Below are positions 18,001 to 53,919 of a stretch of DNA of 64,000 nt, one piece after another. Below the pieces are notes generated by a model that did not search any database, was not told where the DNA came from, and was given only the letters and a program-made list of their open reading frames with translations. The stretch comes from Eledone cirrhosa (Eukaryota). Location of the stretch: positions 43,214,001-43,278,000 of the forward strand of contig OZ024756.1 of NCBI GenBank assembly GCA_964016885.1, read 5' to 3'. The first letter of the stretch is position 1. Every line of letters begins with the position of its first letter. The position numbers and the translations under genes are program-made.

Positions 18001-21000
18001 CTAGAGACAGACATTGGACACACACTAGAGACAGACATTGGACACACAGTAGAGACAGACATTGGACACTCACTAGAGACAGACATTGGACACACACTAG
18101 AGACAGACATTGGACACACACGAGAGACAGACATTGGACACTCCCTAGAGACAGACATTGGACACTCACTAGAGACAGACATTGGACACACACTAGACAG
18201 ACATTGGACACACACTAGAGAGAGACATTGGACACACACTAGAGACAGACATTGGACGCACTAGAGACAGACATTGGACACACACTAGAGACAGACATTG
18301 GGCACACACTAGAGACAGACATTGGACACACACTAGAGACAGACATTGGACACACACACTAGAGACAGACTTTGGACACACACTAGAGACAGACATTGGA
18401 CACACACACTAGAGACAGACATTGGACACACACTAGAGACAGACNNNNNNNNNNNNNNNNNNNNNNNNNNNNNNNNNNNNNNNNNNNNNNNNNNNNNNNN
18501 NNNNNNNNNNNNNNNNNNNNNNNNNNNNNNNNNNNNNNNNNNNNNNNNNNNNNNNNNNNNNNNNNNNNNNNNNNNNNNNNNNNNNNNNNNNNNNNNNNNN
18601 NNNNNNNNNNNNNNNNNNNNNNNNNNNNNNNNNNNNNNNNNNNNCATTGGACACACACACTAGAGAGAGACATTGTACACTCACTAGAGACAGACATTGG
18701 ACACACACTAGAGACAGACATTGGACACACACTAGAGACAGACATTGGACACACACTAGAGACAGACATTGGGCACACACTAGAGACAGACATTGGACAC
18801 TCACTAGAGACAGACATTGGACACACACACTAGAGAGAGACATTGTACACTCACTAGAGACAGACATTGGACACACACTAGAGACAGACATTGGACACAC
18901 ACTAGAGACAGACATGGGACACACACATTAGAGACAGGCATTGCACACACACTAGAGACAGACATTGGACACACACTAGAGACAGACACTGGACACAGAC
19001 TAGAGACAGACATTGGACACTCACTAGAGACAGACATTGGACACACACCAGAGACAGACATTGGACACACACTAGAGACAGACATTGTACACACACTAGA
19101 GACAGACATTGGACACACACACTAGAGACAGACATTGTACACACACTAGAGACAGACATTGGACACACATTAGAGACAGACATTGGACACACACTAGAGA
19201 CAGACATTGGACACACACGAGAGACAGACATTGGACACTCCCTAGAGACAGTCATTGGACACTCACTAGAGACAGACATTGGACACACACTAGAGACAGA
19301 CATTGGACAAACACACTAGAGACAGACATTGGACACACACTAGAGACAGACATTGGACACACATACTAGAGACAGACATTGGACACACACACACTAGAGA
19401 CAGACATTGGACACACACTAGAGACAGACATTGGACACACACTAGAGACAGACATTGGACACACACACTAGAGACAGACATTGGACACACACTAGAGACA
19501 GACATTGGACACACACTAGAGTCAGACATTGGACACACACACTAGAGACAGACATTGGACACACACTAGAGACAGACATTGGACACACACACTAGAGTCA
19601 GACATTGCACACACACACTAGAGACAGACATTGGACACACACTTGAGACAGACATTGGACACACACTAGAGACAGACATTGGACACACACTAGAGACAGA
19701 CATTGGACACACACTAGAGACAGACATTGGACACACACTAGAGACAGACATTGGACACACACACTAGAGTCAGAGATTGGACACACACACTAGAGACAGA
19801 CATTGGACACACACTAGAGACAGACATTGGACACACACACTAGAGTCAGACATTGCACACACACACTAGAGACAGACATTGGACACTCACTAGAGACAGA
19901 CATTGGACACACACACTAGAGACAGACATTGGACACACTAGAGACAGACATTGGACACACAGTAGAGACAGACATTGGACACACACTAGAGACAGACATT
20001 GGACACACACGAGAGACAGACATATGACACTCCCTAGAGACAGACATTGAACACACACACTAGAGACAGACATTGGACACACACTAGACAGATATTGGAC
20101 TCACACTAGAGACAGACATTGGACACACACTAGAGACAGACATTGGACACACACACTAGAGATAGACATTGGACACACACTAGAGACAGACATTGGATAC
20201 ACACTAGAGACAGACTTTGGACACACACTAGAGACAGACATTGGACACACACTAGAGACAGACATTGGACACACACACTAGAGATTGACATTGGACACAC
20301 ACTAGAGACAGACATTGGACACACACTAGAGACAGACATTGGACACACACTAGAGACAGACATTGGACACACACACTAGAGACAGACTTTGGACACACAC
20401 TAGAGACAGACATTGGACACACACGAGAGACAGACATTGGACACTCCCTAGAGACAGTCATTGGACACTCACTAGAGACAGACATTGGACACACACTAGA
20501 GACAGACATTGGACACACACACTAGAGACAGACATTGGACAAACACACTAGAGACAGACATTGGACACACACTAGAGACAGACATTGGACACACACTAGA
20601 GACAGACATTGGACACACACTAGAGACAGACATTGGACACACACACTAGAGACAGACATTGGACACACACTAGAGACAGACGTTGGACACACACTAGAGA
20701 CAGCCATTGGACACACACACTAGAGACAGACTTTGGACACACACTAGAGACAGACATTGGACACACACACTAGAGACAGACATTGGACACACACAAGAGA
20801 CAGACATTGGACACACACTAGAGACAGACATTGGACATACAATAGAGACAGACATTGGACACTCACTAGAGACAGACATTGGACACACACTAGAGACAGA
20901 CATTGGACACACACGAGAGACAGACATTGGACACTCCCTAGAGACAGACATTGGACACTCACTAGAGACAGACATTGGACACACACTAGACAGACATTGG

Positions 21001-26823: not shown

Positions 26824-27690
26824 GAAAGATAACACTGACACAAAGACTCACACACACACTATAGAGAAACATTGCATTACACACACACTAGAGAGAGATA
26901 TTGGACACACACACTAGAGAGAGACGTTACATACACACACTATAGAGAAACATTACACTACACACACACTAGAGAGAGATATTGGACACACACACACACA
27001 CTATAGTGAAACATTACATTACACATACATACTATAGAGAAACATTACGCACATAAACACGCGAAACTTTACATTTTATATACACACTATTGTGAAATAA
27101 TATACACACACAATATAGAGAAAGTTACACACAAAGACAGAGGAAACATTACATTACGCAGACACATACACACATATATACATACATACACACATATACA
27201 AACAGTCATACATACACATACAGACAGATATACATACATACACACACATACAAACAGTCATACATACACATACACACATATATACATACATACACACATA
27301 TACAAACAGTCATACATAAACATACACACAGATATAATCATACATACACACACATACAAACATCATACATACACATACACACACATACAGTCATACATAC
27401 ACATACACACATATATACATACATACACATACAAACAGTCATACACACACATACACACAGATATACATACATACACATACAAACAGTCATACATACACAT
27501 ACACACAGATATACATACATACACATACAAACAGTCATACATACACATAGAAACAGTTATACATACATACACACACATACAAACAGTCATACATACACAT
27601 ACACACATATATACATACATACACACACATGCAAACAGTCACACATACACACATACATACATGTGCACATATATATATATATAATATAGA
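26824..27690. repeat. Degenerate satellite edge grading into a complex CA/CATA minisatellite (ACAAACAGTCATACATACACATACAC... units)
   Basis: Decayed monomers (CTATAGAGAAACATTACA, CTAGAGAGAGATATTGGACAC) followed by CATA-rich units. Near-identical paralog at 43585-44445. Confidence 0.9.
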
Positions 27691-27771
27691 TAACATTAAA
27701 AACAATAAGTATTTCTAACTGAAATGAAACAACAAAAGTGATGACTAATGAGAAAATGGAATAAAACTTAC

Positions 27772-28098
27772 TTTTTACAGACTTTGGTGGGGATTTACCC
27801 ATACGTGTGGCACATTGAAAATTTGTTGCATCTTCGCAATTAGGGTTATTTTTCCAACACTGATACTCTCCATTCCATCGCTTATTTGCTGGTATTTTAC
27901 AGTCAAAACCAGGTGTAACTAGTCCTCTCTGAAATACTTTTGTATCTTTGTCGTAATTCAATAATAAAACCTGAGTTCCATTTCGTAGGAGTTTCAACAC
28001 ATTTAGCCTAGTTAAGTCACCATTTACCTTACATGTTATATTTATTCTAGCTGATGATCCAACTTGAAATACGGGTGTTATAGATTTGATATATATAT
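27772..28098 (-). CDS. Gene 2 exon 4: V-like immunoglobulin domain (copy A), 327 bp, phase 1-1
   Basis: Acceptor ctcctcttccatattttatataCAG at 28101-28099 and donor GTAAGT at 27771-27766. Open frame IYIKSITPVFQVGSSARINITCKVNGDLTRLNVLKLLRNG...CEDATNFQCATRMGKSPPKSVK, with a B-strand Cys and an F-strand D-x-x-x-F-x-C. Paralog at 44533-44898. Confidence 0.85.
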
Positions 28099-28419
28099 CT
28101 GTATATAAAATATGGAAGAGGAGAAAATGTTTAGACAAAGATTTATTTAAAAAATAACATATATAATGGCAGGTAGAGAAATCTAAGACGGAGAAGACAT
28201 CAATAATAGAAAAAGGAGAGAAATACAGTTGTGAATGATAGAAGAATAATAATAATAAGAAGAAGAAGAAGAAGAAGCATGGAAACATGAATTAGTATGT
28301 ATTTCAAACATAAACATATCTCACATGGAAACATACAATCATGCATATATACAAACATGTATTGATAGAGGCAGACATATATTTAAAAATATGGAATCTC
28401 TCTCATCTAATATGCCCAA

Positions 28420-28599
28420 TCTCAATTTTTTCCAATTCCAACCCACCCGTCCCCTCAGTCTATCTTATTTCTCATTCTTTCTTCTGATGAAGGACTAGCG
28501 TCCGAAACGTTAAGACCCTCTTCCTGCTATATCAAGCGTTAACCTAATATATCCCTTCCATATACTGTACCAATTGTGTGGTTATTTCTGTTTAACTTT

Positions 28600-28600
<1 letters not shown>
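28420..28600 (+). mobile_element. Penelope-like element terminal-repeat fragment carrying a hammerhead motif
   Basis: Reverse-complement homolog at 47419-47595. Contains CTGATGA-A-GGAC-TAGC-GTCC-GAAAC and ends in a (CATA)/(TA)n microsatellite. Family assignment rests on the known PLE-hammerhead association. Confidence 0.6.
28480..28515 (+). ncRNA. Candidate minimal type I hammerhead ribozyme
   Basis: TCTT-CTGATGA-A-GGAC(TAGC)GTCC-GAAAC-GTT-AAGA: core boxes, perfect 4-bp stem II, stem I TCTT/AAGA, and palindromic AACGTT in place of stem III. Confidence 0.6.
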
Positions 28601-28642
<42 letters not shown>

Positions 28643-28647
<5 letters not shown>

Positions 28648-29313
28648 ATATTTAGAAACACACAGATACATGCGGACACACACATATATACATGAATGCA
28701 TCCGCACCTAACTGTGAGTTAAGGGTGCCAACTTCACCGATGTTGCTCAATGAATGACTGGGACAGACCAATTCAGTTGAACCAGACTGAACCAGTATCA
28801 GAGTTAAAAATACATTATGAAGAGAGAAGAAACATTTAGATATAATTAGTAATAAAATGTATCATACCTAAACTGCTTCTAAATTCAACGAGTACGTAGT
28901 TTCGTGGCATAAACAAAAACAATATATCATAAAGATATAGAGTCCTTGCGAGGTCTGCCGACTTAACAAGAGGATACCTCATTTTACTAGTCTCAAGAAC
29001 GCGTCTACACGACGTGAGAAAGAATCCCAAAAGGCGGAGGGGGAGATAGTCACGCGATATAACGGTCGAGAAACAGAGCTAAGCCTCCTATAACCCCGAA
29101 GAAAATACCACGGAGGCGGAGGGGGTATTTATATCGAAGCCGTAGAAGAGGTGGTGAAGGAGGCGAGAAGTATGAGTAATGGAAGCTTTCCAGCTGTCCC
29201 CACACTTCAAAGATTGCTCGACCAGAGGGAGTTATTAACAATATATTTAGAAACACACAGATACATGTGGACACACACATATATACATGAATGCATCCGC
29301 ACCCAACTGTGAG

Positions 29314-29316
<3 letters not shown>
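28643..29316. repeat. 79-bp direct repeats (28643-28721, 29238-29316) flanking a ~516-bp unique insert, embedded in (TA)n
   Basis: The two copies differ at 2 positions. The whole block is absent from the paralogous intron (57424-57510). Confidence 0.85.
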
Positions 29317-29386
<70 letters not shown>

Positions 29387-29425
29387 CACAGAAATGTAAT
29401 ACATAAAAGAAAATAATTTGCTCAC

Positions 29426-29740
29426 TTTTATATGTAAGGAAGACTACAAAGTCAAGTTTCATATTCAATACTGAACAGGTGATGGTTATATTGGGGTAGT
29501 CTTCAATTGTTACGTTGTAGTAAAACTGTGACTCTAATGAAACATAACATTTGTTAATTTTTGGAACATTCACAGATTTTAGACTGACTTCTGTTTCGTT
29601 ACTTCCATGTGTTACACTCCATTTAAACAGGACATTCTCTTCAGAATTTGGGACAAAATTTAAATGACATCTGAAGGTAGATATCTGGTTAATTTTGTGG
29701 TTCTTAGTGTCAGACGTCAGATCTTTCAGAGCTGATTTCA
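29426..29740 (-). CDS. Gene 2 exon 3: C-type immunoglobulin domain (copy B), 315 bp, phase 1-1
   Basis: Acceptor ttttatcttttCAG at 29743-29741 and donor GTGAG at 29425-29421. Reads KSALKDLTSD...STFRCHLNF...LFKWSV...NKCYVSLES...NITITCSVLNMKLDFVVFLTYK, with Ig C...W...C spacing. Same-length paralog at 57571-57885. Confidence 0.87.
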
Positions 29741-29859
29741 CTGAAAAGATAAAATGTAAATCTTAGTAAAATAAATAATGAAATGAAACCTTGGCTGCTT
29801 TCATTGATGCAAACAACTAAAATATTGAATGTGGAGGTTGCTTCTGATAGGACACTCTG

Positions 29860-31260
29860 GAAAGCATGTGTGAGGACTCTGCCCTAACAATACTCTCATG
29901 TTGAGGAAGAGAAGAATATCACCCAAATATTTTGTGACACAGAAGCAGGGTAAATGCAATGAGGAACAAGATGTATATGACAATAACTACACACCCGCTA
30001 ATGACACCCAATCCAACAAAGGGGTCAGTTCTACAACTCAGCAGTGACATAGTAAGACAATTAAGGATACGAAGACAGACAAATCAAGTGGACTACCGGG
30101 CTTAGTTGTTGAAATGCTGAAAGCACCTGGGATGGTAGGTCACATCATAATGAACTGTATCATAAACCAAGTAATACAAAGTAATGTCATACCCAATGAC
30201 TGGTGTAGCTGGAGCATTGACAACTACTACATAAGCAAAGGAGAGGCTCTAGACAGAGAACAATATAGAGGTAACAAGTTGAGGAACCAGGTCATGAAAC
30301 TTACAGAAAGAGTTATCATTTAGCTGATTAGGGACCAAATTAAACCAAAGGGGATACAGTTCAGATTTATGCCAGGTAAACATACCACTAATGTCCTCTT
30401 CTTTGTGAGGCAAATGCAGGTAAAGTACCTAGCTAAACATAAGCCCCTCTACATGGCATTTGTTGATCTGAAGAAAGTATTTTACAAAGTCTTCCATTCC
30501 ATAATCTGGTGGGCTGTTAGAAAACTCAGCGTAGATGAGAGACTGAGGGTGGTATAAGCCATGTATTCACAATTATTATAGTGAGGAATTTAGTGTGTAA
30601 ATGTGGGTTCTTCAAGGGTCTGTTCATAGACCTCTCCTCGTTTATTATTATCTTGCAGGCTATAACATAATAGTAGTAGACTGGCTGCCCATGGGAAATC
30701 CTATATGCTGATTATCTAACTCTCATTACCTGAAATTATGGCAGAAATAGAGTACAAATTCATGCTCTAGAAGTAAAAGGTCATAAAGTCAACTAGGCAA
30801 AGACTAACTTACTAGTAATTAGAAAGGAAAACAAGGTCCTGATAGCTGTGGGGAGTAGTCTTGCTTAATGTACAGGAGATGAATGAGTAGAAATTCTATC
30901 CTGTGTTCCAAATGATGACTATAGGTATACAAGTGATGTAATGTGATCTCAGACAGCCTAACAAAGATGTAGGTTTTATAAGTGGTTGATAAATAGGAGC
31001 AGTTAACAGTAAGGGCTCAACGGAAAACAAGCTCTATTAGATAGTCAGAGGACTCCATAGAAGTAGTTGATAGCTTCTGTGACCTGCATGTGTTCGATGG
31101 CTGTGCAATAGTAGTGTGCATGCAAGGCAAAGCATCAATAAACTGTGACAAAACTGGGTATATACGGTGCAGTTACAGTGTAGAGAGGAGATTGCAGTGG
31201 TATGGACAGGTAAAGTGAATAGTGGCTGACAGGTGTGAAACATATGCAGGGTGCTCAAAG
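29860..31260 (+). mobile_element. Degenerate RTE-clade LINE reverse transcriptase relic, antisense to the host gene
   Basis: FMPGKHTTNVLFFVRQMQVKYLAKHKPLYMAFVDLKKVF matches the non-LTR RT motif. GCPWEILYADYL (~30683-30720) is a decayed YADD. Contains stops and frameshifts; boundaries approximate. Confidence 0.85.
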
Positions 31261-31361
31261 TTGATGGAAGTTATGGAAGAGGAAATCTTGGGATGAAGTG
31301 ATAAAAGCGAAACTTCCACATTTATAACTCTGAAAGGAAATGAAGCCGGATCAACATCTCT

Positions 31362-34300
31362 GACAGACATTGGACACACACTAGACAGACATTGGACACA
31401 CACTAGAGATAGACATTGGACACACACTAGAGACAGACATTGGTCACACACACTAGAGACAGACATTGGACACACACTAGAGACAGACATTGGTCACACA
31501 CACTAGAGACAGACATTGGACACACACTAGAGACAGACATTGGACACACACTAGAGACAGACATTGGTCACACGCACTAGAGACAGACATTGGACACACA
31601 CTAGAGACAGATATTGGACACACACTAGATACAGACATTGAACAATCACTAGAGACAGACATTGGACACACACACTAGAGACAGACATTGGACACACACT
31701 AGAGACAGACATTGGACACACACTAGATACAGACATTGGACACACACTAGAGACAGACATTGGACACACACTAGAGACAAACATTGGACACACACTAGAG
31801 ACAGACATTGGACACACACACTAGAGACAGACATTGGACACACACTAGAGACAGACATTGGACACACACTAGAGACAGACATTGGACACACACTAGAGAC
31901 AGACATTAGACACACACTAGAGACAGACATTGGACACACACTAGAGATAGACATTGGACACACACTAGAGACAGACATTGGACACACATTATAGACAGAC
32001 ATTGGAGACACACTAGAGACAGACATTGGACACACACTAGAGATAGACATTGGACACACACTAGATACAGACATTGGACACACACTAGAGACAGACATTG
32101 GACACACTAGAGACAGACATTGGACACACACTAGAGACAGACATTGGACACACACAGATACAGACATTGGTCACACACTAGAGACAGACATTAGACACAC
32201 ACTAGAGACAGACATTGGACACTCACTAGAGACAGACATTGGAGACACACTATAGACAGACATTGGATACACACTAGAGACAGACATTTGACACACACTA
32301 GAGACAGACATTAGACACACACTAGAGAAAGACATTAGACACACACTAGAGACAGACATTGGACACACACTAGAGACAGACATTGGACACACACTAGAGA
32401 CATATATTGGACACACACTAGATACAGACATTGGACACACACTAGAGACAGACATTGGACACACTAGAGACAGACATTGGACACACACTAGAGACAGACA
32501 TTGGACACACACAGAGACAGACATTGGTCACACACTAGAGACAGACATTAGACACACACTAGAGACAGGCATTGGACACTCACTAGAGACAGACATTGGA
32601 GACACACTATAGACAGATATTGGATACACACTAGAGACAGATATTGGACACACACTAGAGACAGACATTAGACACACACTAGAGAAAGACATTAGACACA
32701 CACTAGAGACAGACATTGGACACATACACTAGAGAGAGATATTGGACACACACTAGAGACAGACATTGGACACACACTAGAGACAGACATTGGACACACA
32801 CTAGAGACAGACATTGGACACACACTAGAGACAGACATTTGACACACACTAGAGACAGACATTAGACACACACTAGAGAAAGACATTAGACACACACTAG
32901 AGACAGACATTGGACACATACACTAAAGAGAGATATTGGACCCACACTAGAGACAGACATTGGACACACACAAGAGACAGACATTGGACACACACTAGAG
33001 ACAGACATTGGACACACACTAGAGACAGACATTTGACACACACTAGAGACAGATATTGGACACACACTAGAGACAGACATTGGACACACACTAGAGACAG
33101 ACATTGGATACACACTAGAGACAGACATTGGACACACACTAGAGAAAGACATTAGACAAACACTAGAGACAGACATTGGACACACACTAAAGACAGATAT
33201 TGGACACACACTAGAGACAGACGTTGGACACACACTAGAGTGGGACATTAGACACACACACTAGAGACAGACATTGGACACACACTAGAGAGAGACATTA
33301 GACACACACTAGAGAAAAACATTGGACACACACTAGAGACAGACATTGGACACACACACTAGAGACAGACATTGGACACACACTATAGACAGACATTGGA
33401 CACACACTAGAGACAGACATTGGACACACACTAGAGACAGACATTAGACACACACTAGAGACAGACATAGGACACACACTAGAGATAGACATTGGACACA
33501 CACTAGAGACAGACATTGGACACACATTATAGACAGACATTGGAGACACACTAGAGACAGACATTGGACAAACACTAGAGACAGACATTGGACACACACT
33601 AGATACAGACATTGGACACACTCTAGAGACAGACATTGGACACACTAGAGAGAGACATTGGACACACACTAGAGACAGACATTGGACACACACAGATACA
33701 GACATTGGTCACACACTAGAGACAGACATTAGACACACACTAGAGACAGACATTGGACACTCACTAGAGACAGACATTGGAGACACACTATAGACAGACA
33801 TTGGATACACACTAGAGACAGACATTTGACACACACTAGAGACAGACATTAGACACACACTAGAGAAAGACATTAGACACACACTAGAGACAGACATTGG
33901 ACACACACTAGAGACAGACATTGGACACACACTAGAGACAGACATTGGACACACACTAGATACAGACATTGGACACACACTAGAGACAGACATTGGACAC
34001 ACTAGAGACAGACATTGGACACACACTAGAGACAGACATTGGACACACACAGAGACAGACATTGGTCACACACTAGAGACAGACATTAGACACACACTAG
34101 AGACAGGCATTGGACACTCACTAGAGACAGACATTGGAGACACACTATAGACAGATATTGGATACACACTAGAGACAGACATTTGACACACACTAGAGAC
34201 AGACATTAGACACACACTAGAGAAAGACATTAGACACACACTAGAGACAGACATTGGACACATACACTAGAGGAAGATATTGGACACACACTAGAGACAG

Positions 34301-37300
34301 ACATTGGACACACACTAGAGACAGACATTGGACACACACTAGAGACAGACATTTGACACACACTAGAGACAGACATTAGACACACACTAGAGAAAGACAT
34401 TAGACACACACTAGAGACAGACATTGGACACATACACTATAGAGAGATATTGGACCCACACTAGAGACAGACATTGGACACACACAAGAGACAGACATTG
34501 GACACACACTAGAGACAGACATTGGACACACACTAGAGACAGACATTTGACACACACTAGAGACAGATATTGGACACACACTAGAGACAGACATTGGACA
34601 CACACTAGAGACAGACATTGGATACACACTAGAGACAGACATTGGACACACACTAGAGAAAGACATTAGACAAACACTAGAGACAGACATTGGACACACA
34701 CTAAAGACAGATATTGGACACACACTAGAGACAGACATTGGACACACACTAGAGTGGGACATTAGACACACACACTAGAGACAGACATTGGACACACACT
34801 AGAGAAAAACATTGGACACACACTAGAGACAGACATTGGACACACACTATAGACAGACATTGGACATACACTAGAGACAGACATTAAACACACGCACTAG
34901 AGACAGAAAATGGACACACACTAGAGACAGACATTGGACACACACTAGAGAGAGAGATTGGACACTCACTAGAGACAGACATTGGACACAAACACTAGAG
35001 ACAGACATTGGACACACACACTAGAGAGAGACATTGGTCACACACTAGAGACAGACATTGGACACACACACTAGGGAGAGACATTGGACACACACACTAG
35101 AGAGAGACATTGGACACACACATTAGAGACAGACATTGGACACACACTAGAGACAGACATTGGACACACACTAGAGACAGACATTGGACACACACTAGAG
35201 ACAGACAATGGACACACACTAGAGACAGACATTGGACACACACTAGAGACAGACATTAGACACACAGTAAAGACAGACATTGGACACACAGTAGAGACAG
35301 ACATTGGACACACACTAGAGACAGACATTGGACACACACTAGAGACAGACATTGGACACACACTAGAGACAGACATTGGACACACACTAGAGACAGACAT
35401 TGGACACACACTAGAGACAGACATTGGACACACACTAGAGACAGACATTAGACACACAGTAAAGACAGACATTGGACACACAGTAGAGACAGACATTGGA
35501 CACACACTAGAGACAGACATTGGACACACACTAGAAACAGACATTGGACACACACTAAAGACAGACATTGAACACACACACTAGAGAGAGACATTGGAGA
35601 CACACTAGAAACAGACATTGGACACACACACTAGAGACAGACATTGGACACACACTAGAGACAGACATTGGACACACACTAGAGACAGACATTAGACACA
35701 CAGTAGAGACAGACATTGGACACACACTAGAGACAGACATTGGACACACTAGAGACAGACATTGGACACACTAGAGACAGACATTGGACACACACTAGAG
35801 ACAGACATTGGACACACACACTAGAGAGAGACATTGGACACACACTAGAGACAGACATTGGACACACACACTAGAGAGAGACATTGGACACACACTAGAG
35901 ACAGACATTGGACACACACTAGAGACATATATTGGACACACACTAGAGACAGACATTGGACACACACTAGAGACAGACATTGGACAAACACACTAAAGAC
36001 AGACATTGGACACACTAGAGACAGACATTGGCCATACACTAGTGAGAGACATTGGACACACACTAGAGACAGACATTAGACACACACTAGAGACAGACTT
36101 TGGACACAATAAAGTCAGACATTGGACACACATACCAGACAGACATTGGACACACACTAGAGACAGACATTGGACACACATTAGAGACAGACATTGGACA
36201 CACTAGAGACAGATATTGGACACACTAGAGACAGACATTGGACACACACTAGAGAGGGACATTAGACACACACACTAGAGACAGACGTTTGACACACACT
36301 AGAGACAGACATTGGACACACACTAGAGACAGACTTTGGACACACACTAGAGACAGACATTGGAAAGACACTAGAGACAGACATTGGACACACACTAGAG
36401 ACAGACGTTGGACAAACACACTAGACAGACATTGGACACACACTAGAGACATACATTGGACACACACTAGAGACAGACATTGGACACACACTAGAGACAG
36501 ACATTGGACACACACTAGAGACAGACATTAGACACCCACTAGAGACAGACATTGGACACACACTAGAGACAGAGATTGGATACACACTAAAGACAGACAT
36601 TTGACACACACTAGAGACAGACATTGGACACACACTAGAGACAGACATTGGACACACACTAGAGACAGACATTGGACACACACGAGAGACAGACATTGGA
36701 CACACACACTAGAGACAGACATTGGGCACACACTAGAGAGAGACATTGGACACACACTCGAGACAGACATTGGACACACACACTAGAGACAGACATTGGA
36801 CACACACACTAGAGATAGACATTGGACACACACTACAGACAGACATTGCACACACACACTAGATACAGACATTGGACACACACTAGAGACAGATATTGGA
36901 CACACACTAGAGAGAGACATTGGACACACACTAGAGACAGACATTGGACACACACACTAGAGACAGACATTGGACACACACACTAGAGACAGACATTGGA
37001 CACACACACTAGAGAGAGACATTGGACACTCACTAGAGACAGACATTGGACACACACACTAGAGACAGGCATTGGACACACACTAGAGACACACATTGGA
37101 CACACACTAGAGACAGACATTGGACACACAGAGTAGAGACAGACATTGGACACACACACTAGAGAGAGACATTGGACACTCACTAGAGACAGACATTGGA
37201 CACACACACTAGAGACAGACATTGGACACACACACTAGAGATAGACATTGGACACACACTAGAGACTGACATTGGACACACACTAGAGACAGACATTGAA

Positions 37301-40300
37301 CACACACTAGAGACAGAAATTGGACACACACTAGAGACAGACATTGGACACACACGAGAGACAGACATTGGACACACACGAGAGACAGACATTGGACACT
37401 CCCTAGAGACAGACATTGGACACACACTAGAGACAGACATTAGACACACAGTAGAGACAGACATTAGACACACACTAGAGACAGACATTGGACACACACC
37501 AGAGACAGACATTGGACACACACTAGAGACAGACATTGGACACACACTAGAGACAGACATTGGGCACACACTAGAGACAGACATTGGACACACACACTAG
37601 AGAGAGACATTGGACACACACTAGAGACAGACATTAGACACACACTAGAGACAGACATTGGACACACACAGAGACAGAAAATGGACACACACTAGAGACA
37701 GACATTGGACACACACTAGAGACAGACATTGGACACACACTAGAGACAGACATTGGACACACACTAGAGACAGACATTGGACACACACTAGAGACAGACA
37801 TTAGACACACAGTAAAGACAGACATTGGACACACAGTAGAGACAGACATTGGACACACACTAGAGACAGACATTGGACACACACTAGAAACAGACATTGG
37901 ACACACACTAAAGACAGACATTGAACACACACACTAGAGAGAGACATTGGAGACACACTAGAGACAGACATTGGACACACACACTAGAGACAGACATTGG
38001 ACACACACTAGAGACAGACATTGGACACACACTAGAGACAGACATTAGACACACAGTAGAGACAGACATTGGACACACACTAGAGACAGACATTGGACAC
38101 ACTAGAGACAGACATTGGACACACTAGAGACAGACATTGGACACACACTAGAGACAGACATTGGACACACACACTAGAGAGAGACATTGGACACACACTA
38201 GAGACAGACATTGGACACACACACTAGAGACAGACATTGGACACACACTAGAGACAGTCATTGGACACACACTAGAGACAGACATTGGACACACACTAGA
38301 GACAGACATTGGACACACACACTAGAGACAGACATTGGCCACACACTAGAGACAGACATTGGACACACACTAGAGGCAGACATTGGACATACACTAGAGA
38401 CAGACATTAAACACACACACTAGAGACAGAAAATGGACACACACTAGAGACAGACATTGGACACACACTAGAGAGAGACATTGGACACTCACTAGAGACA
38501 GACATTGGACACAAACAATAGAGACAGACATTGGACACACACACTAGAGAGAGACATTGGACACACACACTAGAGAGAGACATTGGACACACACACTAGA
38601 GAGAGACATTGGACACACACACTAGAGACAGACATTGGACACACACACTAGAGATAGACATTGGACACACACTAGAGACTGACATTGGACACACACTAGA
38701 GACAGACATTGAACACACACTAGAGACAGAAATTGGACACACACTAGAGACAGACATTGGACACACACTAGAGACAGACATTGGACACACACACTAGAGA
38801 CAGACATTGGACACACACACTAGAGACAGACATTGGACACACACACTAGAGAGAGACATTGGACACTCACTAGAGACAGACATTGGACACACACACTAGA
38901 GACAGGCATTGGACACACACTAGAGACACACATTGGACACACACTAGAGACAGACATTGGACACACAGAGTAGAGACAGACATTGGACACACACACTAGA
39001 GAGAGACATTGGACACTCACTAGAGACAGACATTGGACACACACACTAGAGACAGACATTGGACACACACACTAGAGATAGACATTGGACACACACTAGA
39101 GACTGACATTGGACACACACTAGAGACAGACATTGAACACACACTAGAGACAGAAATTGGACACACACTAGAGACAGACATTGGACACACACGAGAGACA
39201 GACATTGGACACACACGAGAGACAGACATTGGACACTCCCTAGAGACAGACATTGGACACACACTAGAGACAGACATTAGACACACAGTAGAGACAGACA
39301 TTAGACACACACTAGAGACAGACATTGGACACACACCAGAGACAGACATTGGACACACACTAGAGACAGACATTGGACACACACTAGAGACAGACATTGG
39401 GCACACACTAGAGACAGACATTGGACACACACACTAGAGAGAGACATTGGACACACACTAGAGACAGACATTAGACACACACTAGAGACAGACATTGGAC
39501 ACACACAGAGACAGAAAATGGACACACACTAGAGACAGACATTGGACACACACTAGAGACAGACATTGGACACACACTAGAGACAGACATTGGACACACA
39601 CTAGAGACAGACATTGGACACACACTAGAGACAGACATTAGACACACAGTAAAGACAGACATTGGACACACAGTAGAGACAGACATTGGACACACACTAG
39701 AGACAGACATTGGACACACACTAGAAACAGACATTGGACACACACTAAAGACAGACATTGAACACACACACTAGAGAGAGACATTGGAGACACACTAGAG
39801 ACAGACATTGGACACACACACTAGAGACAGACATTGGACACACACTAGAGACAGACATTGGACACACACTAGAGACAGACATTAGACACACAGTAGAGAC
39901 AGACATTGGACACACACTAGAGACAGACATTGGACACACTAGAGACAGACATTGGACACACTAGAGACAGACATTGGACACACACTAGAGACAGACATTG
40001 GACACACACACTAGAGAGAGACATTGGACACACACTAGAGACAGACATTGGACACACACACTAGAGACAGACATTGGACACACACTAGAGACAGTCATTG
40101 GACACACACTAGAGACAGACATTGGACACACACTAGAGACAGACATTGGACACACACACTAGAGACAGACATTGGCCACACACTAGAGACAGACATTGGA
40201 CACACACTAGAGGCAGACATTGGACATACACTAGAGACAGACATTAAACACACACACTAGAGACAGAAAATGGACACACACTAGAGACAGACATTGGACA

Positions 40301-43300
40301 CACACTAGAGAGAGACATTGGACACTCACTAGAGACAGACATTGGACACAAACAATAGAGACAGACATTGGACACACACACTAGAGAGAGACATTGGACA
40401 CACACACTAGAGAGAGACATTGGACACACACACTAGAGAGAGACATTGGACACACACACTAGAGACAGACATTGGACACACACTAGAGACAGACATTGGA
40501 CACACACTAAAGACAGACATTGAACACACACACTAGAGAGAGACATTGGAGACACACTAGAGACAGACATTGGACACACACACTAGAGACAGACATTGGA
40601 CACACACTAGAGACAGACATTGGACACACACTAGAGACAGACATTAGACACACAGTAGAGACAGACATTGGACACACACTAGAGACAGACATTGGACACA
40701 CTAGAGACAGACATTGGACACACTAGAGACAGACATTGGACACACACTAGAGACAGACATTGGACACACACACTAGAGAGAGACATTGGACACACACTAG
40801 AGACAGACATTGGACACACACACTAGAGACAGACATTGGACACACACTAGAGACAGACATTGGACACACACTAGAGACAGACATTGGACACACACTAGAG
40901 ACAGACATTGGACACACACACTAGAGACAGACATTGGGCACACACTAGAGACAGACATTGGACACACACTAGAGGCAGACATTGGACATACACTAGAGAC
41001 AGACATTAAACACACACACTAGAGACAGAAAATGGACACACACTAGAGACAGACATTGGACACACACTAGAGAGAGACATTGGACACTCACTAGAGACAG
41101 ACATTGGACACAAACAATAGAGACAGACATTGGACACACACACTAGAGAGAGACATTGGACACACACTAGAGACAGACATTGGACACACACACTAGAGAG
41201 AGACATTGGACACACACACTAGAGAGAGACATTGGACACACACACTAGAGACAGACATTGGACACACACTAGAGACAGACATTGGACACACACTAGAGAC
41301 AGACAATGGACACACACTAGAGACAGACATTGGACACACACTAGAGACAGACATTGGACAAACACTAGAGACAGACATTAAACACACAGTAGAGACAGAC
41401 ATTGGACACACACACTAGAGAGAGACATTGGACACACACTAGAGACAGACATTCCACACACACACTAGAGAGATACATTGGACACACACTAGTGACAGAC
41501 ATTTGACACACACACTAGAGACAGACATTGGAGACATACTAGACAGACATTGGACACACACTATACACAGACATTGGACACACACTAGAGAGGGACATTA
41601 GACACACACACTAGAGACAGACTTTTGACACACACTAGAGACAGACATTGGACACACACACTAGAGACAGACATTGGGCACACACTAGAGACAGACATTG
41701 GACACACACTAGAGACAGACATTGGACAGACACTAGAGACAGACATTGGACACACACTAGAGACAGACATTGGACACACACACTAGACAGACATTGGACA
41801 CACACTAGAGACAGATATTGGACACACACTAGAGACAGACATTGGACACACACTAGAGACAGACATTGAACACACACTAGAGACAGACATTAGACACACA
41901 CACTAGACAGACATTGGGCACACACTAGAGACAGATATTGGACACACACTAGAGACAGACATTGGACACACACTAGAGACAGACATTGGACAGACACTAG
42001 AGACAGACATTGGACACACACTAGAGACAGACATTGGACACATACACTAGACAGACATTGGACACACACTAGAGACAGATATTGGACACACACTAGAGAC
42101 AGACATTGGACAGACACTAGAGACAGACATTGGACACACACTAGAGACAGACATTGGACACACACACTAGAGACATATATTGGACACACACTAGAGGCAG
42201 ACATTGGGCACACACTAGAGACAGACATTGGGCACACACTAGAGACAGACATTGGACAAACACACTAGAGACAGACATTGGACACACTAGAGACAGACAT
42301 TGGACATACACTAGTGAGAGACATTGGACACACACTAGAGACAGACATTAGAGACAGACATTGGACACTCACTCGAGACAGACATTGGACACACACACTA
42401 GAGACAGACATTAGACACACACACTAGAGAGAGACATTGGACACACACTAGAGACAGACATTGCACACACACACTAGATACAGACATTGGACACACACTA
42501 GAGACAGATATTGGACACACACTAGAGAGAGACATTGGACACACACTAGAGACAGACATTGGACACACACACTAGAGACAGACATTGGACACACACACCA
42601 GAGAGAGACATTGGACACTCACTAGAGACAGACATTGGACACACACACTAGAGACAGACATTGGACACACACACTAGAGACAGACATTGGACACACACAC
42701 TAGAGAGACATTGGACACTCACTAGAGACAGACATTGGACACACACACTAGAGACAGACCTTGGACACACACTAGAGACAGACATTGGAAACACACACTA
42801 GAGAGAGACATTGGACACTCATTAGAGACAGACATTGGACACACACACTAGAGACAGACATTGGACACACACTAGAGACAGACATTGGACACACACACTA
42901 GAGACAGACATTGGACACACACTAGAGACAGACATTGGACACACACTAGATACAGACATTGGACACACACTAGAGACAGACATTGGACACACACTAGAGA
43001 CAGACATTGGACACACACACTAGAGACAGACATTGGAAACACACACTAGAGAGAGACATTGGACACTCATTAGAGACAGACATTGGACACACACACTAGA
43101 GACAGACATTGGACACACACTAGAGACAGACATTGGACACACACTAGATACAGACATTGGACACACACTAGAGACAGACATTGAACACACACTAGAGACA
43201 GACATTGGACACACACTAGAGACAGACATTGGACACACACACTAGAGAGAGACATTGGACACTCACTAGAGACAGACATTGGACACACATTAGAGACAGA

Positions 43301-43584
43301 CATTAGACACACACTAGAGACAGACATTGGATGCGTACTAGAGACAGACATTGGGCACACACTAGAAACAGACATTGGACACACACTAGAGACAGACATT
43401 GGACACACACGAGAGACAGACATTGGACACTCACTAGAGACAGACATTGGAGACACACACTAGAGACAGTCATTGGACACACACTAGAAACAGACATTGG
43501 ACACACACTAGAGACAGACATTGGACACACTAGAGACAAACATTGGACACACTAGAGACAGACATTGGACACACACACTAGAGA
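31362..43584. repeat. 24-bp satellite array 2 (~12.2 kb, complete), inside the V-to-C intron of gene 2
   Basis: Same monomer and orientation as array 1. Internal duplications offset by 1538 (32171 vs 33709), 1837 (36983 vs 38820) and 762 bp (39745 vs 40507). Confidence 0.99.
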
Positions 43585-44445
43585 GAAAGATAACACTGAC
43601 ACAAAGACTCACACACACACTATAGAGAAACATTGCATTACACACACACTAGAGAGAGATATTGGACACACACACTAGAGAGAGACGTTACATACACACA
43701 CTATAGAGAAACATTACACTACACACACACTAGAGAGAGATATTGGACACACACACACACACTATAGTGAAACATTACATTACACATACATACTATAGAG
43801 GAACATTACGCACATAAACACGCGAAACTTTACATTTTATATACACACTATAGTGAAATGATACACACACACTTTATAGAGAAAGATACACACAAAGACA
43901 GAGGAAACATTACATTACGCAGACACATACACACATATATACATACATACACACATATACAAACAGTCATACATACACATACAGACAGATATACATACAT
44001 ACACACACATACAAAAAGTCATACATACACATACACATATATACATACATACACACATATACAAACAGTCATACATACACATACACACAGATATAATCAT
44101 ACATACACACACATAAAAACATCATACATACACATACACACACATACAGTCATACATACACATACACACATATATACATACATACACATACAAACAGTCA
44201 TACACACACATACACACAGATATACATACATACACATACAAACAGTCATACATACACATACACACAGAAATACATACATACACATACAAACAGTCATACA
44301 TACACATACAAACAGTTATACATATATACACACACATACAAACAGTCATACATACACATACACACATATATACATACATACACACACATGCAAACAGTCG
44401 CACATACACACATACATACATGTGCACACACATATATATATATAA
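43585..44445. repeat. Degenerate satellite edge plus CA/CATA minisatellite (paralog of 26824-27690)
   Basis: Colinear and near-identical to 26824-27690. Confidence 0.9.
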
Positions 44446-44532
44446 TATAGATAACATTAAAAACAATAAGTATTTCTAACTGAAATGAAACAACAAAAGT
44501 GATGACTAATGAGAAAATGGAATAAAACTTAC

Positions 44533-44898
44533 TTTTTACAGACTTTGGTGGGGATATTTCGTTATTTGTGGCACATTGAAAATTTGTTGCATCTTCGCAA
44601 TTAGGGTTATTTTTCCAGCACTGATACTCTCCATTCCATCCCTTATTTGCTGGTATTTTACAGTCAAAACCAGGTGTAACTACTCCTCTCTGAAATCCAC
44701 CTGTAGCTTTGTTGTAATTCAATTGTAAAACCTGAGTTCCATTTCGTAGGAGTCTCAAGACAGTTACCACATTTAAGTCACCAGTTAGCTTACATGTTAT
44801 ATTTATTCTAGCTGATGATCCAACTTCAAATTCAGGTGTTATATTTATTCTAGCTGATGATCCATCTTCAAATTCAGGTGTTATATTTAGTGATACCC
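44533..44898 (-). CDS. Gene 2 exon 2: V-like immunoglobulin domain (copy A'), 366 bp, phase 1-1, with an in-frame 42-bp tandem duplication
   Basis: Acceptor cttccatattttatataTAG at 44901-44899 and donor GTAAGT at 44532-44527. Reads GVSLNITPEFEDGSSARINITPEFEVGSSARINITCKLTGDL...CEDATNFQCATNNEISPPKSVK. Confidence 0.85.
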
Positions 44899-45886
44899 CT
44901 ATATATAAAATATGGAAGAGCAGAAAATGATTAGACAAAGATTTATTTAAAAAATAACATATATAATGGCAGGTAGAGAACAACTAAGACGGAGAAGAAA
45001 TCAATAATAGAAAAAGAAGAGAAAATACAGTTGTGAATGATAAAATAAGGAGAAGTTGTGAATGATAAAACTGAAGATGAAAAAGAAGAGGAGGAAGAAA
45101 AAAAAAGAAAAGAAAAATGAAGAAAAAAGGTGAAGAAGAAGAAAGACAAAGAAGAAGAATCATGTAGACTGATGGAGAGAAACATGGAGTATGAGGTGGT
45201 GTGTGTGTGACAGTAAAATGTGTATCTCCTTTGTTAGATTGGTTTCCCCATTAGAGGTAAGTCGGTTCAGGTGACCATGCCTTTCTCATATAGAACTATT
45301 TCTGGCTAGGTTTCTACAGCTGGATGCCCTTCATATTTGTAGTGTGGTGGGTACTTTTTGTTGTGACACCTACATGACCACTGTAGTTATATATACAACG
45401 TTGACTGGTAACTCTGAAGATATGTGCTAACATTTATTGCATTTACAGAAAGTTTTTAATGATTTATGTTGGCAATTGAAGAGTCAATCATGCTAGGAAT
45501 TTTGTAGGCCCTTTCCAGTTACTTTGGGGCCACGCTGTATATTGGAAATTGGAAATGTTCAAACCTTTTAAAAGTTTCTTTCGTTCTGTGTGATCTGTAG
45601 AATTGACGTGACTTATTAGCGTCTAAGGAAATCCGGGGGAAAAAACCCCTACAGAAAAATCCAGAGAGTCAGAAAAAAGGACAATCAGGCAGATATGTAG
45701 AGTTATAGTTGACTAATATCTGACATCCCTTGGGACCGGGGGTGTAACTAGGTAAAATAGCATTTATGGCAAGCAATGAAATTCTGCCAAAACAACTGAC
45801 ACCCATCTTTCTTTTAGATAACCATGAAATCAGCTCAAAAATACGAATCACGCCGTTGTGAAATAACTATATATATATATATATGT

Positions 45887-46030
45887 ATAATTGCTTCTAC
45901 TTTTGGCACAAGGCCAGCAATTATCACAGTGTATTACTGGTACTTTATTTTATCGACCCCGTAAGGATGAAAGGCAAAGTTAACCTCGGCGGGATTTGAA
46001 CTCAGTCCATAAAGGGACGTAACTGTGCTA
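45887..46030 (-). mobile_element. tRNA-derived SINE, 5'-truncated
   Basis: Reverse complement of the family at 47887 and 53920 (GAGTTCAAATCCCGCCGAGGTTAACTTTGCCTTTCATCCTTACGGGGTCGATAAAATAAAGTACCAG). Confidence 0.85.
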
Positions 46031-46049
46031 ATGGTTTCTAATTGGATAT

Positions 46050-46215
46050 AGAGTGTATAAGAGAAGACTGTGTTGGTATGAACATGTGATGTCTATGGAA
46101 GGTAACAACAGAGAATCTATTGGAAGAGGTAGATCTAAGGAAACATGGCAGGAAGTAGTGAAGACTGACCTTCAAAAGACACGACTGAAGGGAGTAGCCA
46201 TATGCTGTACTGAAG
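46050..46215 (+). mobile_element. RTE LINE 3'-end fragment
   Basis: RRLCWYEHVMSM...GRGRSKETWQEVVKTDL resembles the RTE C-terminal RRLRWxGHVxRM...GRPxxTW motif. Confidence 0.7.
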
Positions 46216-46339
46216 ACCTTCCTAATACTTTTTAATGAGCAGAAGAGGTGTAGCCATTATCTTCAGACTGAAGACTTGTCACAAACACATACAAACTGAC
46301 TGACATTTATAACACACTACATTCTTAAATTCAAGCGTC

Positions 46340-46493
46340 AGACATCATGCTTTGCAACATAGAGATATGACCCTTTATGTTCAAATACCGCCGAGGTTGG
46401 CTTTGCATTTCATCCTTACGGGGTCGATAAAATAAGGTACCAGTAATGCACTGGGATAATTGCTGGCCTTGTGCCAAAAGTAAAAGCAATTAT
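46340..46493 (+). mobile_element. tRNA-derived SINE, inverted relative to 45887-46030
   Basis: Same family core and tail (GCTGGCCTTGTGCCAAAAGTAAAAGCAATTAT). Confidence 0.85.
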
Positions 46494-46705
46494 TACTATT
46501 GATCTCAAACAGGTATTAATATACAAAGTTAGAAGACTAACAAGGGACGGAACTGTAACTGATGAAAGCTGAACCATGTATATTTGGCTGGTAGGGCTAA
46601 TGTCTTACCTGGGCATATATTGAGGGGGAGGGATGAGGGGGGAGAGAGAGGTAGAGATGAGGGGGAGAGAGAGGAAAAAAGGAAAATAAAAGGGGGAAAC
46701 AGAGT

Positions 46706-46930
46706 TATAATCGTTTCTGATTAAGGAACAAAGCCAGCAATTTTAGGGGTGAGGAAAATTTAATTAAATCGACCATAGGGCGTGACTGATACTTTATTTT
46801 ATCGACCCTGTAAGGAGGAAAGGCAAAGCTAACCACGGCTGGATTTGAACTGAAAATGTAAAGGGTTATAACTCTATGTCGCGAAGTAGCGTGCCCGTCA
46901 CTCTACCGATTATCGCTACTCCACTACCTG
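46706..46930 (-). mobile_element. tRNA-derived SINE, older or diverged subfamily
   Basis: Core TACTTTATTTTATCGACCCTGTAAGGAGGAAAGGCAAAG...GGATTTGAAC plus a tRNA-like head. Confidence 0.75.
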
Positions 46931-47044
46931 CGTGTAAGAGAGGAGGAAAGTGTATATAACAGAGAGAGAGAGAGAGATGCGGAGTGTGTAAAAGACAGAG
47001 AGAGCAACATGGGGAAAATTAAATTGTCTTTTGTCTTAACTTAC

Positions 47045-47165
47045 CGCCTGAAGTGGAACGAGCCATCATCATCATCACCATAACTATTACCATAGTCCTC
47101 AACAGGTTGGGCAGAAATAAGCGCCGACTGCCCCCATCAACAGTTGTAATATAACAGCAAGACAT
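47045..47165 (-). CDS. Gene 2 exon 1: signal-peptide exon (MSCCYITTVDGGSRRLFLPNLLRTMVIVMVMMMMARSTSG); alternative start at ATG 47093
   Basis: ATG at 47165 is in frame with hydrophobic MVIVMVMMMMA and a small-residue c-region STSG. Phase-1 donor GTAAGT at 47044-47039 splices in frame (G+GG) to the V exon at 44898. Confidence 0.75.
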
Positions 47166-47333
47166 ACTTTGATCCACGTAAAATAGGAATTGTAACAGAA
47201 ATAAAAAAATATTTTACAATAGATTTTCTTGTCTAATTAATGTCTGTGGTGTAATAAAATTAATTAAAAGAAATGTACAAATTATAAGGTAATAAAACAG
47301 GTTAATCTAAACATAAGTATTGTGTATATGTGA

Positions 47334-47335
<2 letters not shown>

Positions 47336-47418
<83 letters not shown>
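47336..47418. repeat. (GT)n microsatellite
   Basis: Perfect dinucleotide run about 170 bp upstream of the gene 2 ATG. Confidence 0.98.
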
Positions 47419-47421
<3 letters not shown>

Positions 47422-47595
47422 AAGAGTATACAGAAGTAACAACACAATCGGTACAGTATGTGGAAGGTATTTATTTGGTTAACGATTGAAATATCAGGAA
47501 GAGGGTCTTACCGTTTCGGACGCTAGTCCTTCATCAGAAGAAAGAAAGAAAAATAAGAATAGATTGGAGGGACGGGCGGGTTGGAATTGAAAAAA
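47419..47595 (-). mobile_element. Penelope-like terminal-repeat fragment (second copy) with hammerhead motif at 47541-47506
   Basis: Minus strand reads TCTT-CTGATGA-A-GGAC-TAGC-GTCC-GAAAC-GGT-AAGA. Homologous to 28420-28600 and abuts the (CA)n tract. Confidence 0.6.
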
Positions 47596-47886
47596 TGTCT
47601 TTAGATAAAAATAATAGGTCCATTCATGTTGACATCCCTTCGAAAATTGTTGATACTGGCGTTTTGTGTATGATTTATTTTTTTAGAAAAGTGGATGATG
47701 GAGCGCGTCTACCTGAAATGAAAAAAACAACCGTTTTGGAGAAAGAGCTATACTTGTGCGCGTGCGTATGCATGTGTGTTCGTACGAAGCTAAGCGGAAA
47801 TGTGTGTGTATATGTAAGTAAAAATGTGTGTGTGTGTGTGTGTGCTTGTAAGTGCGAAGCTATCAGTAAAACTATGTTAATATAAG

Positions 47887-48076
47887 GGCGGTGGATTGGC
47901 AGTATCGGTAGAGAGTCGGACACCATTCTTTGAAGCATAGAGTTACGTCCCTTTATGATCTGATTTCAAATTCCGCCGAGGTTAACTTTGCCTTTCATCC
48001 TTACGGGGTCGATAAAATAAAGTACCAGTAATGTACTGCGTAATTGCTGGCCTTGTGCCAAAAGTAGAAACAAATA
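47887..48076 (+). mobile_element. Near full-length tRNA-derived SINE
   Basis: A-box-like TGGCAGTATCGG, B-box-like TTCAAATTCC, conserved body and A-rich tail; multiple dispersed copies in the window. Confidence 0.88.
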
Positions 48077-48129
48077 TAAGGGTGTGTATGTAAAGGGAAA
48101 AGTGGAGTTTGCATATTTTGTCGGTCTGT

Positions 48130-48530
48130 ATTAGTTGTCAGAGAATATGTTTCTGCCCATAAAAGAGCCATAGGAATCTAGGGGTGAATGTACAAGCCCG
48201 TGTGATAATGGACGGGGTATTAAAGAAATTGGGGAGGTGAGTTGAGTCCATGAGGGAAATAGAACCCAAGGCGGTGAATCAGATATAATTGTGTGAGTTG
48301 TTAAATCGTGACGTTCTTTCTTGAAAATATCGAAAAATGCATAATATGACAAAGTTAGTTTTCCTTGTTTTCTTAAATCCCAGAATGAAAGTAGTTAAAA
48401 TAATCCGTATGTGAATAAACAACACATATACCCCATATATATTTCTCTAGAGTGGTGAGCGTGTATTAGAGAAAAATATATTTTGAAATGAAATCTAAAA
48501 ACAAAAGAAGAACGACCAACTTTTAAAAAT
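48130..48530 (-). mobile_element. Possible highly decayed LINE fragment (post-RT region of an I/Nimb-like element)
   Basis: Only a ...TIISDSPPW... motif reminiscent of the RT-RNase H linker; weak. Confidence 0.25.
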
Positions 48531-48825
48531 GGAACAAGTTGCAGGTAATATAGTAACAGGTTATTTTTCCTCAACTGATTTGTCTTGTAAATTAGTAGCA
48601 GCACAAATACACACTTACGTATGTAGCGTTCCAAATGTTATGATCAAAGAACGCCGTCTTATCATCTAACTCTCTGTAACAGAGTTTAATTATTTTTTCT
48701 TCTTAAAATCCCAATAAAATTTTCTCTCTCCTTATTGACATGTATTTCTTTTTCTCCCCCTGTCTAGACACGTCTTTCTTTCTCTCCCACTCACTTCCCT
48801 GGTCTTTAGTTCTCTCTATCGATTT

Positions 48826-49741
48826 CTCTCACATTCTTTCATCTCTCCGTCTCTCTATTTCTCTTTCTCTCACATCCTCTATGTCCTTCTCTATAGAATG
48901 GAGAAAGAGAGATAATTCCAAAACAAAATGGCCTGATTGTTTTCAAATGATAACTGGAAAATAATTAACATTGAATTCCATATAAATTACTGTTTTGTTT
49001 CATTTTTCTTCTTTCATATTTCCACCCATATTTGCAAAGTTAACCTTGGCGGGATAATAAATGATTCTTTTGCAAGCAAACCTCAATACGCTATGTTTTT
49101 TTTAGAAGACTATCGGCATCGTTTTGTTCTAGCAGTGACACAGAGAATCAAAATGATATTTGTTTTTTTTTTTGTGGCTTGCCTTACTGATGTATCAGGG
49201 TTTGCTTGTGAGGGTGCTTGGTTGCTCCAGCGCCTTAGCCTCGCTATCACCAGTAATAATGCTGCCAGCATATTGGCTTGCCTCAAAAAGTTTTAGAGGG
49301 CGGTTCCGGCACCCATTGAGGTGTGTGACTGATTGACAAACTTAATGTTGAATTAATATTTTTTTCGATTTGATTCTATATTTTTATGTGAAATAGTTAT
49401 GTAATTAAGCAGTATATATATTATTTGTGTGTATAGTTTCATTCTGCGAAAGTGCATGGAATAGTGGTTAGAGCGTTGGGCTAACTTCGTTATTCTACTC
49501 TCACATTCTTTCATCTCTCTGTCTCTCTAATTCTCTTTTACTATCTCTTTCTCTCACATCCCCTCTCTTTCTCGTAATCATACACTATGTCCTTCTCTAT
49601 AGAATGGAGAAAGAGAGATAATTCCAAAACAAAATGGCCAGATTGTTTTTAAATGATAACAGGAAAATAAATAATTCTATATAAATTACTGTTTCGTTTC
49701 ATTTTTCTTCTTTCATATTTCCACCAATATTTGCAAAGTTA
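48826..49741. repeat. ~215-240-bp dispersed direct repeat (48826-49041 and ~49498-49741)
   Basis: Shared CTCACATTCTTTCATCTCTC...CTATAGAATGGAGAAAGAGAGATAATTCCAAAACAAAATGGCC...TATTTGCAAAGTTA. Confidence 0.85.
49034..49349 (+). mobile_element. Composite repeat: SINE fragment joined to the 3' tail of a CRE/NeSL-like (REL-endonuclease) non-LTR element; second copy at 53361-53615
   Basis: EGAWLLQRLSLAITSNNAASILACLKKF* resembles the C-terminal QRxSxAIQRGNAASxLG motif of such elements. Two diverged colinear copies. Confidence 0.6.
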
Positions 49742-50819: not shown

Positions 50820-50822
50820 TTA

Positions 50823-51880: not shown

Positions 51881-51881
51881 A

Positions 51882-53915: not shown

Positions 53916-53919
53916 TATA

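Follow-up and report, generated by a model that had tools for sequence, protein, structure and literature searches.

The question raised by this locus is whether an intron that appears to have been assembled from two others is a genuine feature of a cluster of immunoglobulin (Ig) receptor genes in the octopus Eledone cirrhosa, and whether the join has given rise to a longer receptor. Approximately 45 kb of the AT-rich 64,000-nt stretch analysed (hereafter the window) consists of a 22/24/26-bp satellite, and the minus-strand exons are confined to two satellite-free islands, 27020-31332 and 43781-59733. In the direction of transcription, the order is C0 (57571-57885, recognised by its match to family proteins) and TM (56189-56303) of an upstream gene, a leader or signal exon (47045-47165; 40 codons, phase 1; 46% identity to the leader of P0018 by tblastn, E 0.004), V1 (44533-44898; 366 nt), a satellite intron, C1 (29426-29740; intact, 315 nt, C-like Ig), the chimeric intron, and V2 (27772-28098; intact, 327 nt, V-type Ig). 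V1 carries an in-frame 39-nt tandem duplication at its 5' end, where the domain starts (44792-44869), that adds 13 residues. The upstream gene's TM exon is degenerate, with two Asn in the helix at positions that are hydrophobic in relatives and a one-base shift against the family reading, from which it departs after a T run; the family-like frame has a stop where relatives have Trp. This exon may have decayed or been remodelled, or the T run may be a homopolymer error. A candidate small post-TM exon (56063-56100, minus strand) was proposed from splice signals and frame.

Every V-to-C intron is filled by the same satellite, in lengths from 12 kb to 27 kb or more, and each array has higher-order repeats of its own (~1.5-4 kb). 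The arrays occupy 1-26830 (after V2, with an assembly gap of 200 N at 18445-18644), 31350-43700 (between V1 and C1) and 59735-64000 (upstream of C0, whose V exon lies beyond the window), and might serve crossovers that bring V and C exons of different paralogs together. The pre-C intron (29767-31332) is common to C1 and C0, is 95.6% identical to 58093-59693 at aligned bases, and contains a decayed fragment that we take to be a LINE-like reverse transcriptase. An Rfam scan of 27000-60000 returned 0 matches.

The chimeric intron is present in the assembly as the earlier note had claimed, extending over 28099-29425 (minus strand; 1327 nt, GT..AG, phase 1). Its left arm (28099-28275), which provides the polypyrimidine tract and the 3' splice site, is derived from the intron preceding V1 (parent segment 44899-45186) and is identical to 44910-45045 at 128 of 134 aligned bases, while its right arm (28287-28395) is derived from the intron that follows C0 and leads to TM, and is identical to 57311-57423 at 101 of 109 aligned bases. 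The left arm belongs to a longer alignment of 27020-28246 with 43781-45048 (92.0%, 1270 columns) that takes in the V exon with the introns following and preceding it; C1 likewise aligns to C0, as do the introns upstream of each. Derivation of ~28290-28396 from the intron after C0 was upheld in full, at 89.4% over 113 columns (E 5e-36). The note's counterpart claim, that 28099-~28288 corresponds to 44899-~45186, is borne out by the 92% match, but firm homology extends only to ~28246-28275 (45048-45089), and the 45186 limit rests on one 8-mer past a degenerate purine repeat. The ~12 kb said to be missing does lack a counterpart at the join: the segment 45187-57310 (12,124 bp) comprises intergenic DNA, a TM exon (56303>56189) that matches family proteins and a leader exon (47165>47045) that does so too, but the tail exons placed there are unconfirmed.

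The best local score between the two parent introns is 26, within the range given by 200 shuffles (mean 23.8, maximum 35); they share no homology, and the join is therefore non-homologous; homologous unequal crossover at the junction is ruled out. The breakpoint described as readable is indeed visible, but it is resolved only to ~10-40 bp because it lies where an (AAT)n(AAG)n repeat ends, and the best split position is flat across 28275-28286. The junction zone (28276-28290) contains microhomologies of 3-4 bp and an 11-mer (28278-28288) that recurs without change at 28324-28334, 46 bp away, and has only three copies in the window. The junction 11-mer resembles a templated insertion, but among control 11-mers 378 of 11,280 (3.4%) likewise have a copy within 60 bp, in a set inflated by minisatellites, and an 8-mer at 45179 of the left parent offers an alternative reading. 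An ATG at 28288, within the junction, opens a stop-free, Phe/Leu-rich frame into V2 (28097-28288, minus strand).

The remainder of the chimeric intron is mostly an insertion of ~920 bp (28396-29314) that is absent after C0 and consists of high-copy repeats: a repeat at ~28427-28611, presumably SINE-like, (TA)n, and an element bounded by direct repeats of 79 bp (28643-28721 and 29238-29316). This last element (28643-29316, ~670 bp) is of very high copy, lies between (TA)n runs and has terminal repeats 97% alike. Summed DNA contig depth reaches 1e5-1e6 over the insertion versus tens to hundreds in exons and arms.

The coding consequences of the join were as proposed: every Ig exon is phase 1-1, the predicted C1-to-V2 joint reads A+AT = Asn, and the joined leader-V1-C1-V2 runs for 1129 nt (376 codons) with no stop. 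All four exons are intact with canonical splice sites, and the V2 acceptor equals that of V1, with a pyrimidine fraction of 0.73 and 40 nt free of AG upstream. The same-phase exons, intronic breakpoint and retained frame seen here are those of exon shuffling. When the stretch from C1 to V2 was searched by tblastn with family proteins, neither a leader nor a TM exon turned up, save for a low-complexity match over the junction repeat. The V-C-V portion lies in the window, while any fourth domain (C2) would lie outside it, on the far side of 27 kb or more of satellite that includes the 200-N gap.

Pfam placed none of the four window domains in a family above cut-off, and among 19 relatives no Ig family reached that level; word-index protein searches gave no match. 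A full HMMER scan with V2 returned 34 matches with 26-39% identity in V, five of which (P0009, P0011, P0019, P0025 and P0027) were rejected as short matches in long repeat proteins without a V/C profile match, leaving a family set of 29. The 20 matches that were looked up are all octopod and uncharacterised (10 from O. bimaculoides, 7 from O. vulgaris, 2 from O. sinensis and 1 from Argonauta hians); some are models named after LOC115221679, and the apparent placement of many on one contig per species suggests that they are clustered. No description of this family was found in the literature at title and abstract level, nor any match for six LOC identifiers of relatives; differential-expression supplements may list the genes. 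These proteins share a V domain with five Cys, a C domain with three Cys, a long leader and the TM start, and most comprise a leader and one V-C unit followed by a TM or GPI-like hydrophobic end. The V-C-TM ground plan from which the earlier note had set out is found in P0013 and P0016, and the window leader and TM start match P0018 and P0013. P0013, from Argonauta hians, is a TM-type protein with a long Tyr-rich cytoplasmic tail, suggesting that phosphotyrosine signalling may occur in the family.

The five Cys of the V domain are near-invariant and accompany a C-W-K motif (Cys/Trp columns conserved in 24/25 to 27/27 rows), and neither V1 nor V2 has lost any of these Cys or the Trp. C1 and C0 have the three Cys and Trp of the C domain and are ~41-43% identical to P0033 and P0015. 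In a model of P0016 (mean pLDDT 84), the first domain is V-type and the second has seven strands; the first superimposes on antibody and TCR V domains with Z ~13 and an rmsd of 1.7-2.1 A over ~100 residues. On this model, the V domain is predicted to have a V-type fold, with nine-strand V topology including C' and C'' and the B-F disulfide. V2 resembles V-set clusters by features (0.90-0.93); canonical V-set features were looked for, and there is no Trp in strand C and no Pfam V-set score above cut-off. Folding V2 from its single sequence was useless (pLDDT 38). Atlas matches of the C domain are divided between the C1-set and CD80-like C2-set, with a recognition value of 2141, below the 2300 mark. 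Together, features, profiles and the fold of a relative support the Ig identity assigned to the V and C exons. An odd Cys in the V EF loop and another in the C DE loop co-occur in 19 of the 20 rows with both domains and probably form an inter-domain disulfide; with such a bond, V-C would most naturally be duplicated as one unit, and a C domain would be expected after V2.

Variation in domain number, also claimed previously, recurs in the family, with repeated modules in 6 of the 29 gene models: P0001, P0002 (five V-C units), P0003, P0004, P0015 and P0020 (V-C-C). In P0001 and P0015 a C domain is followed directly by a V domain. All six are predicted models of a single O. vulgaris annotation, in which neighbouring genes may have been merged; the five V-C-stalk units of P0002, the mixed-lineage V-C array of P0001 and the V-C-C of P0020 could each reflect either an independent duplication of modules or such a merge. 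The V tree places V1 beside V2 as its sister (100/99) and groups the five P0002 V domains together with P0034, from which it follows that the module repeats arose independently.

The two window modules have diverged in an uneven manner. V1 and V2 differ by 30 substitutions in 103 codons, and C0 and C1 by 19 substitutions. For V1/V2, pN is 10.5% and pS 7.1% (dN/dS 1.5, P 0.30, not significant); for C0/C1, dN/dS is 4.8 (P 0.07). Nonsynonymous divergence of V1/V2 is about four times higher than the 2.4% of the flanking introns (21/884; P 5e-7). Amino-acid differences cluster in the CDR-equivalent loops: BC, C'C'' and FG together differ at 10 of 18 positions, the rest of the domain at 11 of 86 (P 2e-4), with loop limits taken from the structural model of a relative. 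This is the pattern of diversifying selection on a putative ligand-binding surface, or of patchy conversion from paralogs under such selection, and it does not prove present use of V2. Divergence greater in exons than in introns may also be obtained by gene conversion, and that between V1 and V2 may be older than the join.

The explanation that we consider probable, though with reserve, is a germline rearrangement in a tandem octopod V-C cluster, in which a non-homologous intron join has most likely yielded a longer receptor for surface recognition. The anatomy of the locus, the open frame, the family, the fold of a relative and the loop-focused divergence are observed directly, and the repair pathway, the splicing, C2 and the function are inferred. 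A break in a C-to-TM intron would have been joined, without long homology, to the intron that immediately precedes a V exon, by microhomology-mediated end joining or a template switch, an end-joining label that we assume for this junction. The hybrid intron would retain the donor of the C exon and the acceptor region of the V exon, and, since every Ig exon is phase 1-1, a single gene would read leader-V1-C1-V2 and then probably C2 and an anchor beyond the window. The product would act in immune or self/non-self recognition and present two distinct V binding surfaces, or would consist of V-C and V-C-V-C isoforms formed by module skipping.

There are two potential causes of such a join, an internal tandem duplication of a V-C module and a deletion that fused neighbouring genes, and both yield an identical junction. 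We lean very slightly towards duplication. Internal duplication requires the V flanks to be younger than the C flanks, and the introns flanking V do differ less (2.4%) than those flanking C (4.6%; P 0.005). The pre-V intron alone, at 4.5%, is similar to the C0/C1 introns and fits deletion equally well; together with the distance of V2, which is farther from V1 than is the V of a transcript described below, it fits fusion of an older paralog followed by conversion. The satellite arrays do not discriminate between deletion and duplication, since they are internally homogenised and alike only near their ends.

Read data came from 4 of 15 runs (X1, X2, X4 and X13) at 90% likeness, X1 and X2 being DNA-like and from one sample, possibly the assembly's own. 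V2-specific contigs of 163-166 nt occur with 0 differences in X1 and X2 (depth 12.9 and 11.5), and C1-specific contigs occur in X1 at depths of 23 and 27, about twice that of the V2 type, a ratio that argues weakly for duplication. Because each has its own substitutions and exact specific contigs, V2 and C1 are true diverged copies and not assembler duplicates. Summed read depth, which is no copy number, suggests several further paralogs. X4 is a separate sample (S2), called RNA-like solely from exon-restricted depth (exons and repeats covered, unique intron not). In its main contig the 3' end of a V exon is spliced to a C exon with a C0-like start (8 of 11 letters, and the twelfth), confirming V-to-C splicing and expression of the family.

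These transcripts also bear on the strongest alternative, which we regard as unlikely: that the junction is real but V2 is unused, the locus being silent or a pseudogene or C1 skipping V2 or terminating, with the V2 loops inherited, after deletion, from an earlier separate gene. The X4 contig joins a V1-like V (V1's letters at 21 of 30 listed variants, new letters at 9) to a C that is neither C0 nor C1, and then runs for 252 nt that are found nowhere on the window and are not V sequence; their three-base overhang fits a TM-exon or V1-type start and not that of V2. The C-to-V splice 29426>28098, expected in transcripts if the longer receptor is made, was sought and no such joint was seen in X4, a sample without V2 or C1 alleles. 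This counts against dominant C-to-V splicing in that sample, which may lack the locus. However, X4 comes from another sample whose alleles differ from every window copy, with the listed V2- and C1-specific alleles absent, and contigs drop rare forms. RNA editing is an unlikely source of the X4 differences, as only 3 of the 9 novel V variants are G on the transcript. Disuse of V2 would also agree with the degenerate upstream TM exon, which indicates that decay occurs in the cluster, and with the ~920 bp of repeats inserted in the intron; yet the coding exons and splice sites noted above are undamaged, and the sole sense-strand AATAAA of the chimeric intron (28147) is part of the arm that stems from the pre-V intron.

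It is improbable that the junction is a misassembly or chimeric read, in which V2 and C1 exist but are not adjacent. The cluster is satellite-rich and paralogous, a scaffold gap lies 9.6 kb away, and the junction adjoins a simple repeat; no contig or read bridging it was found among those listed, because the adjoining repeat (28233-28285) is masked, and the RAD run X13, with no depth at 28197-28409, is uninformative on the junction. However, the parent introns offer no overlap usable by an assembler, each arm has its own substitutions, and the junction 11-mer occupies a position from which it is absent in both parents. Least of all do we expect V2 to start a separate gene through a new, unspliced hydrophobic leader in frame from the junction ATG, since, although that frame is stop-free to V2 and opens with a Phe/Leu run, ~10% of shuffles and resamples open too (526/5000 and 483/5000), X4 depth is zero over 28126-28409, and there is no promoter evidence.

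The preferred reading, a germline join that lengthened a receptor gene, has parallels in known systems. In the portion of the 4Ig B7-H3 (CD276) account available, V-C-V-C arises by tandem exon duplication, with short and long forms made by alternative splicing (PMC3172298). The octopus gene similarly repeats a V-C module within one gene, with an ectodomain of V and C1/C2-like domains, and short and long splice forms are a plausible outcome for it too. In contrast to B7-H3, where the available portion describes an old, mammal-wide event, the octopus join, whose introns have diverged by 2-5% and whose junction can still be seen, is young, and the V loops differ strongly between copies. No homology to B7 was detected, the 20 looked-up matches (of 34) being all octopod and none named B7, and the likeness is one of architecture only. 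Hybrid KIR genes, as partially sourced here, result from repeat (Alu)-associated recombination between paralogs (PMC2816608); there too, deletion or duplication in a tandem Ig-receptor cluster yields chimeric genes, whereas the introns joined in the octopus are non-homologous and the join adds domains.

Among invertebrates, the parts available of the accounts of Hydractinia Alr (PMC9546547) and Botryllus FF/FcoR (PMC12582321) likewise describe clustered, lineage-specific, divergent IgSF genes with V-type domains, pseudogenes and copy-number variation. In Alr proteins an EF-loop Cys is predicted to bond to the next domain (PMC9546547), which parallels the V-C disulfide proposed above. Unlike the octopod proteins, however, Alr has V, I and Fn3-like domains (PMC9546547) and FcoR is Ig-Sushi-Ig-Ig (PMC12582321), and no homology to either was found. 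The resemblance of the octopod family to Alr and FF/FcoR, as far as these sources extend, is in organisation only, with no known allorecognition role in octopus, and the gene belongs to none of the B7-H3, KIR, Alr or FF/FcoR families.

The rearrangement itself is ordinary exon shuffling, already known from 4Ig B7-H3 and hybrid KIR genes, and the junction, as a clean and young instance of a textbook process, is of modest interest alone; the host family is more interesting. Cephalopod immune and self-recognition receptors are poorly known (octopus, cephalopod and squid are unmentioned in the main text of a 2025 review of invertebrate IgSF; PMC11999971), and octopod V-C paralogs differ at antibody-type binding loops. 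Indirect signs that may bear on a recognition role are the loop-focused divergence and the Tyr-rich tail of P0013. We suggest tentatively, as a possibility somewhat to be doubted, that octopods possess clustered germline V-C receptors that diversify by hypervariable CDR-equivalent loops and by gain and loss of disulfide-locked V-C modules, with this gene an expressed, polymorphic, two-specificity V-C-V-C member serving immune or self/non-self recognition. The cluster offers concrete candidates and a PCR-typable structural variant for tests of recognition in cephalopods.

Other features were observed between the exons of the upstream gene and the leader. A diverged duplicate pair in the intergenic DNA (49034-49349 and 53361-53615, 73%) has no match to family proteins, and repeated blocks of ~370 bp occupy 50995-53270. 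On the minus strand, 54191-54358 is an open Thr/Pro-rich stretch with a weak, low-complexity match to the stalk of P0034, and is either a simple repeat or an exon.
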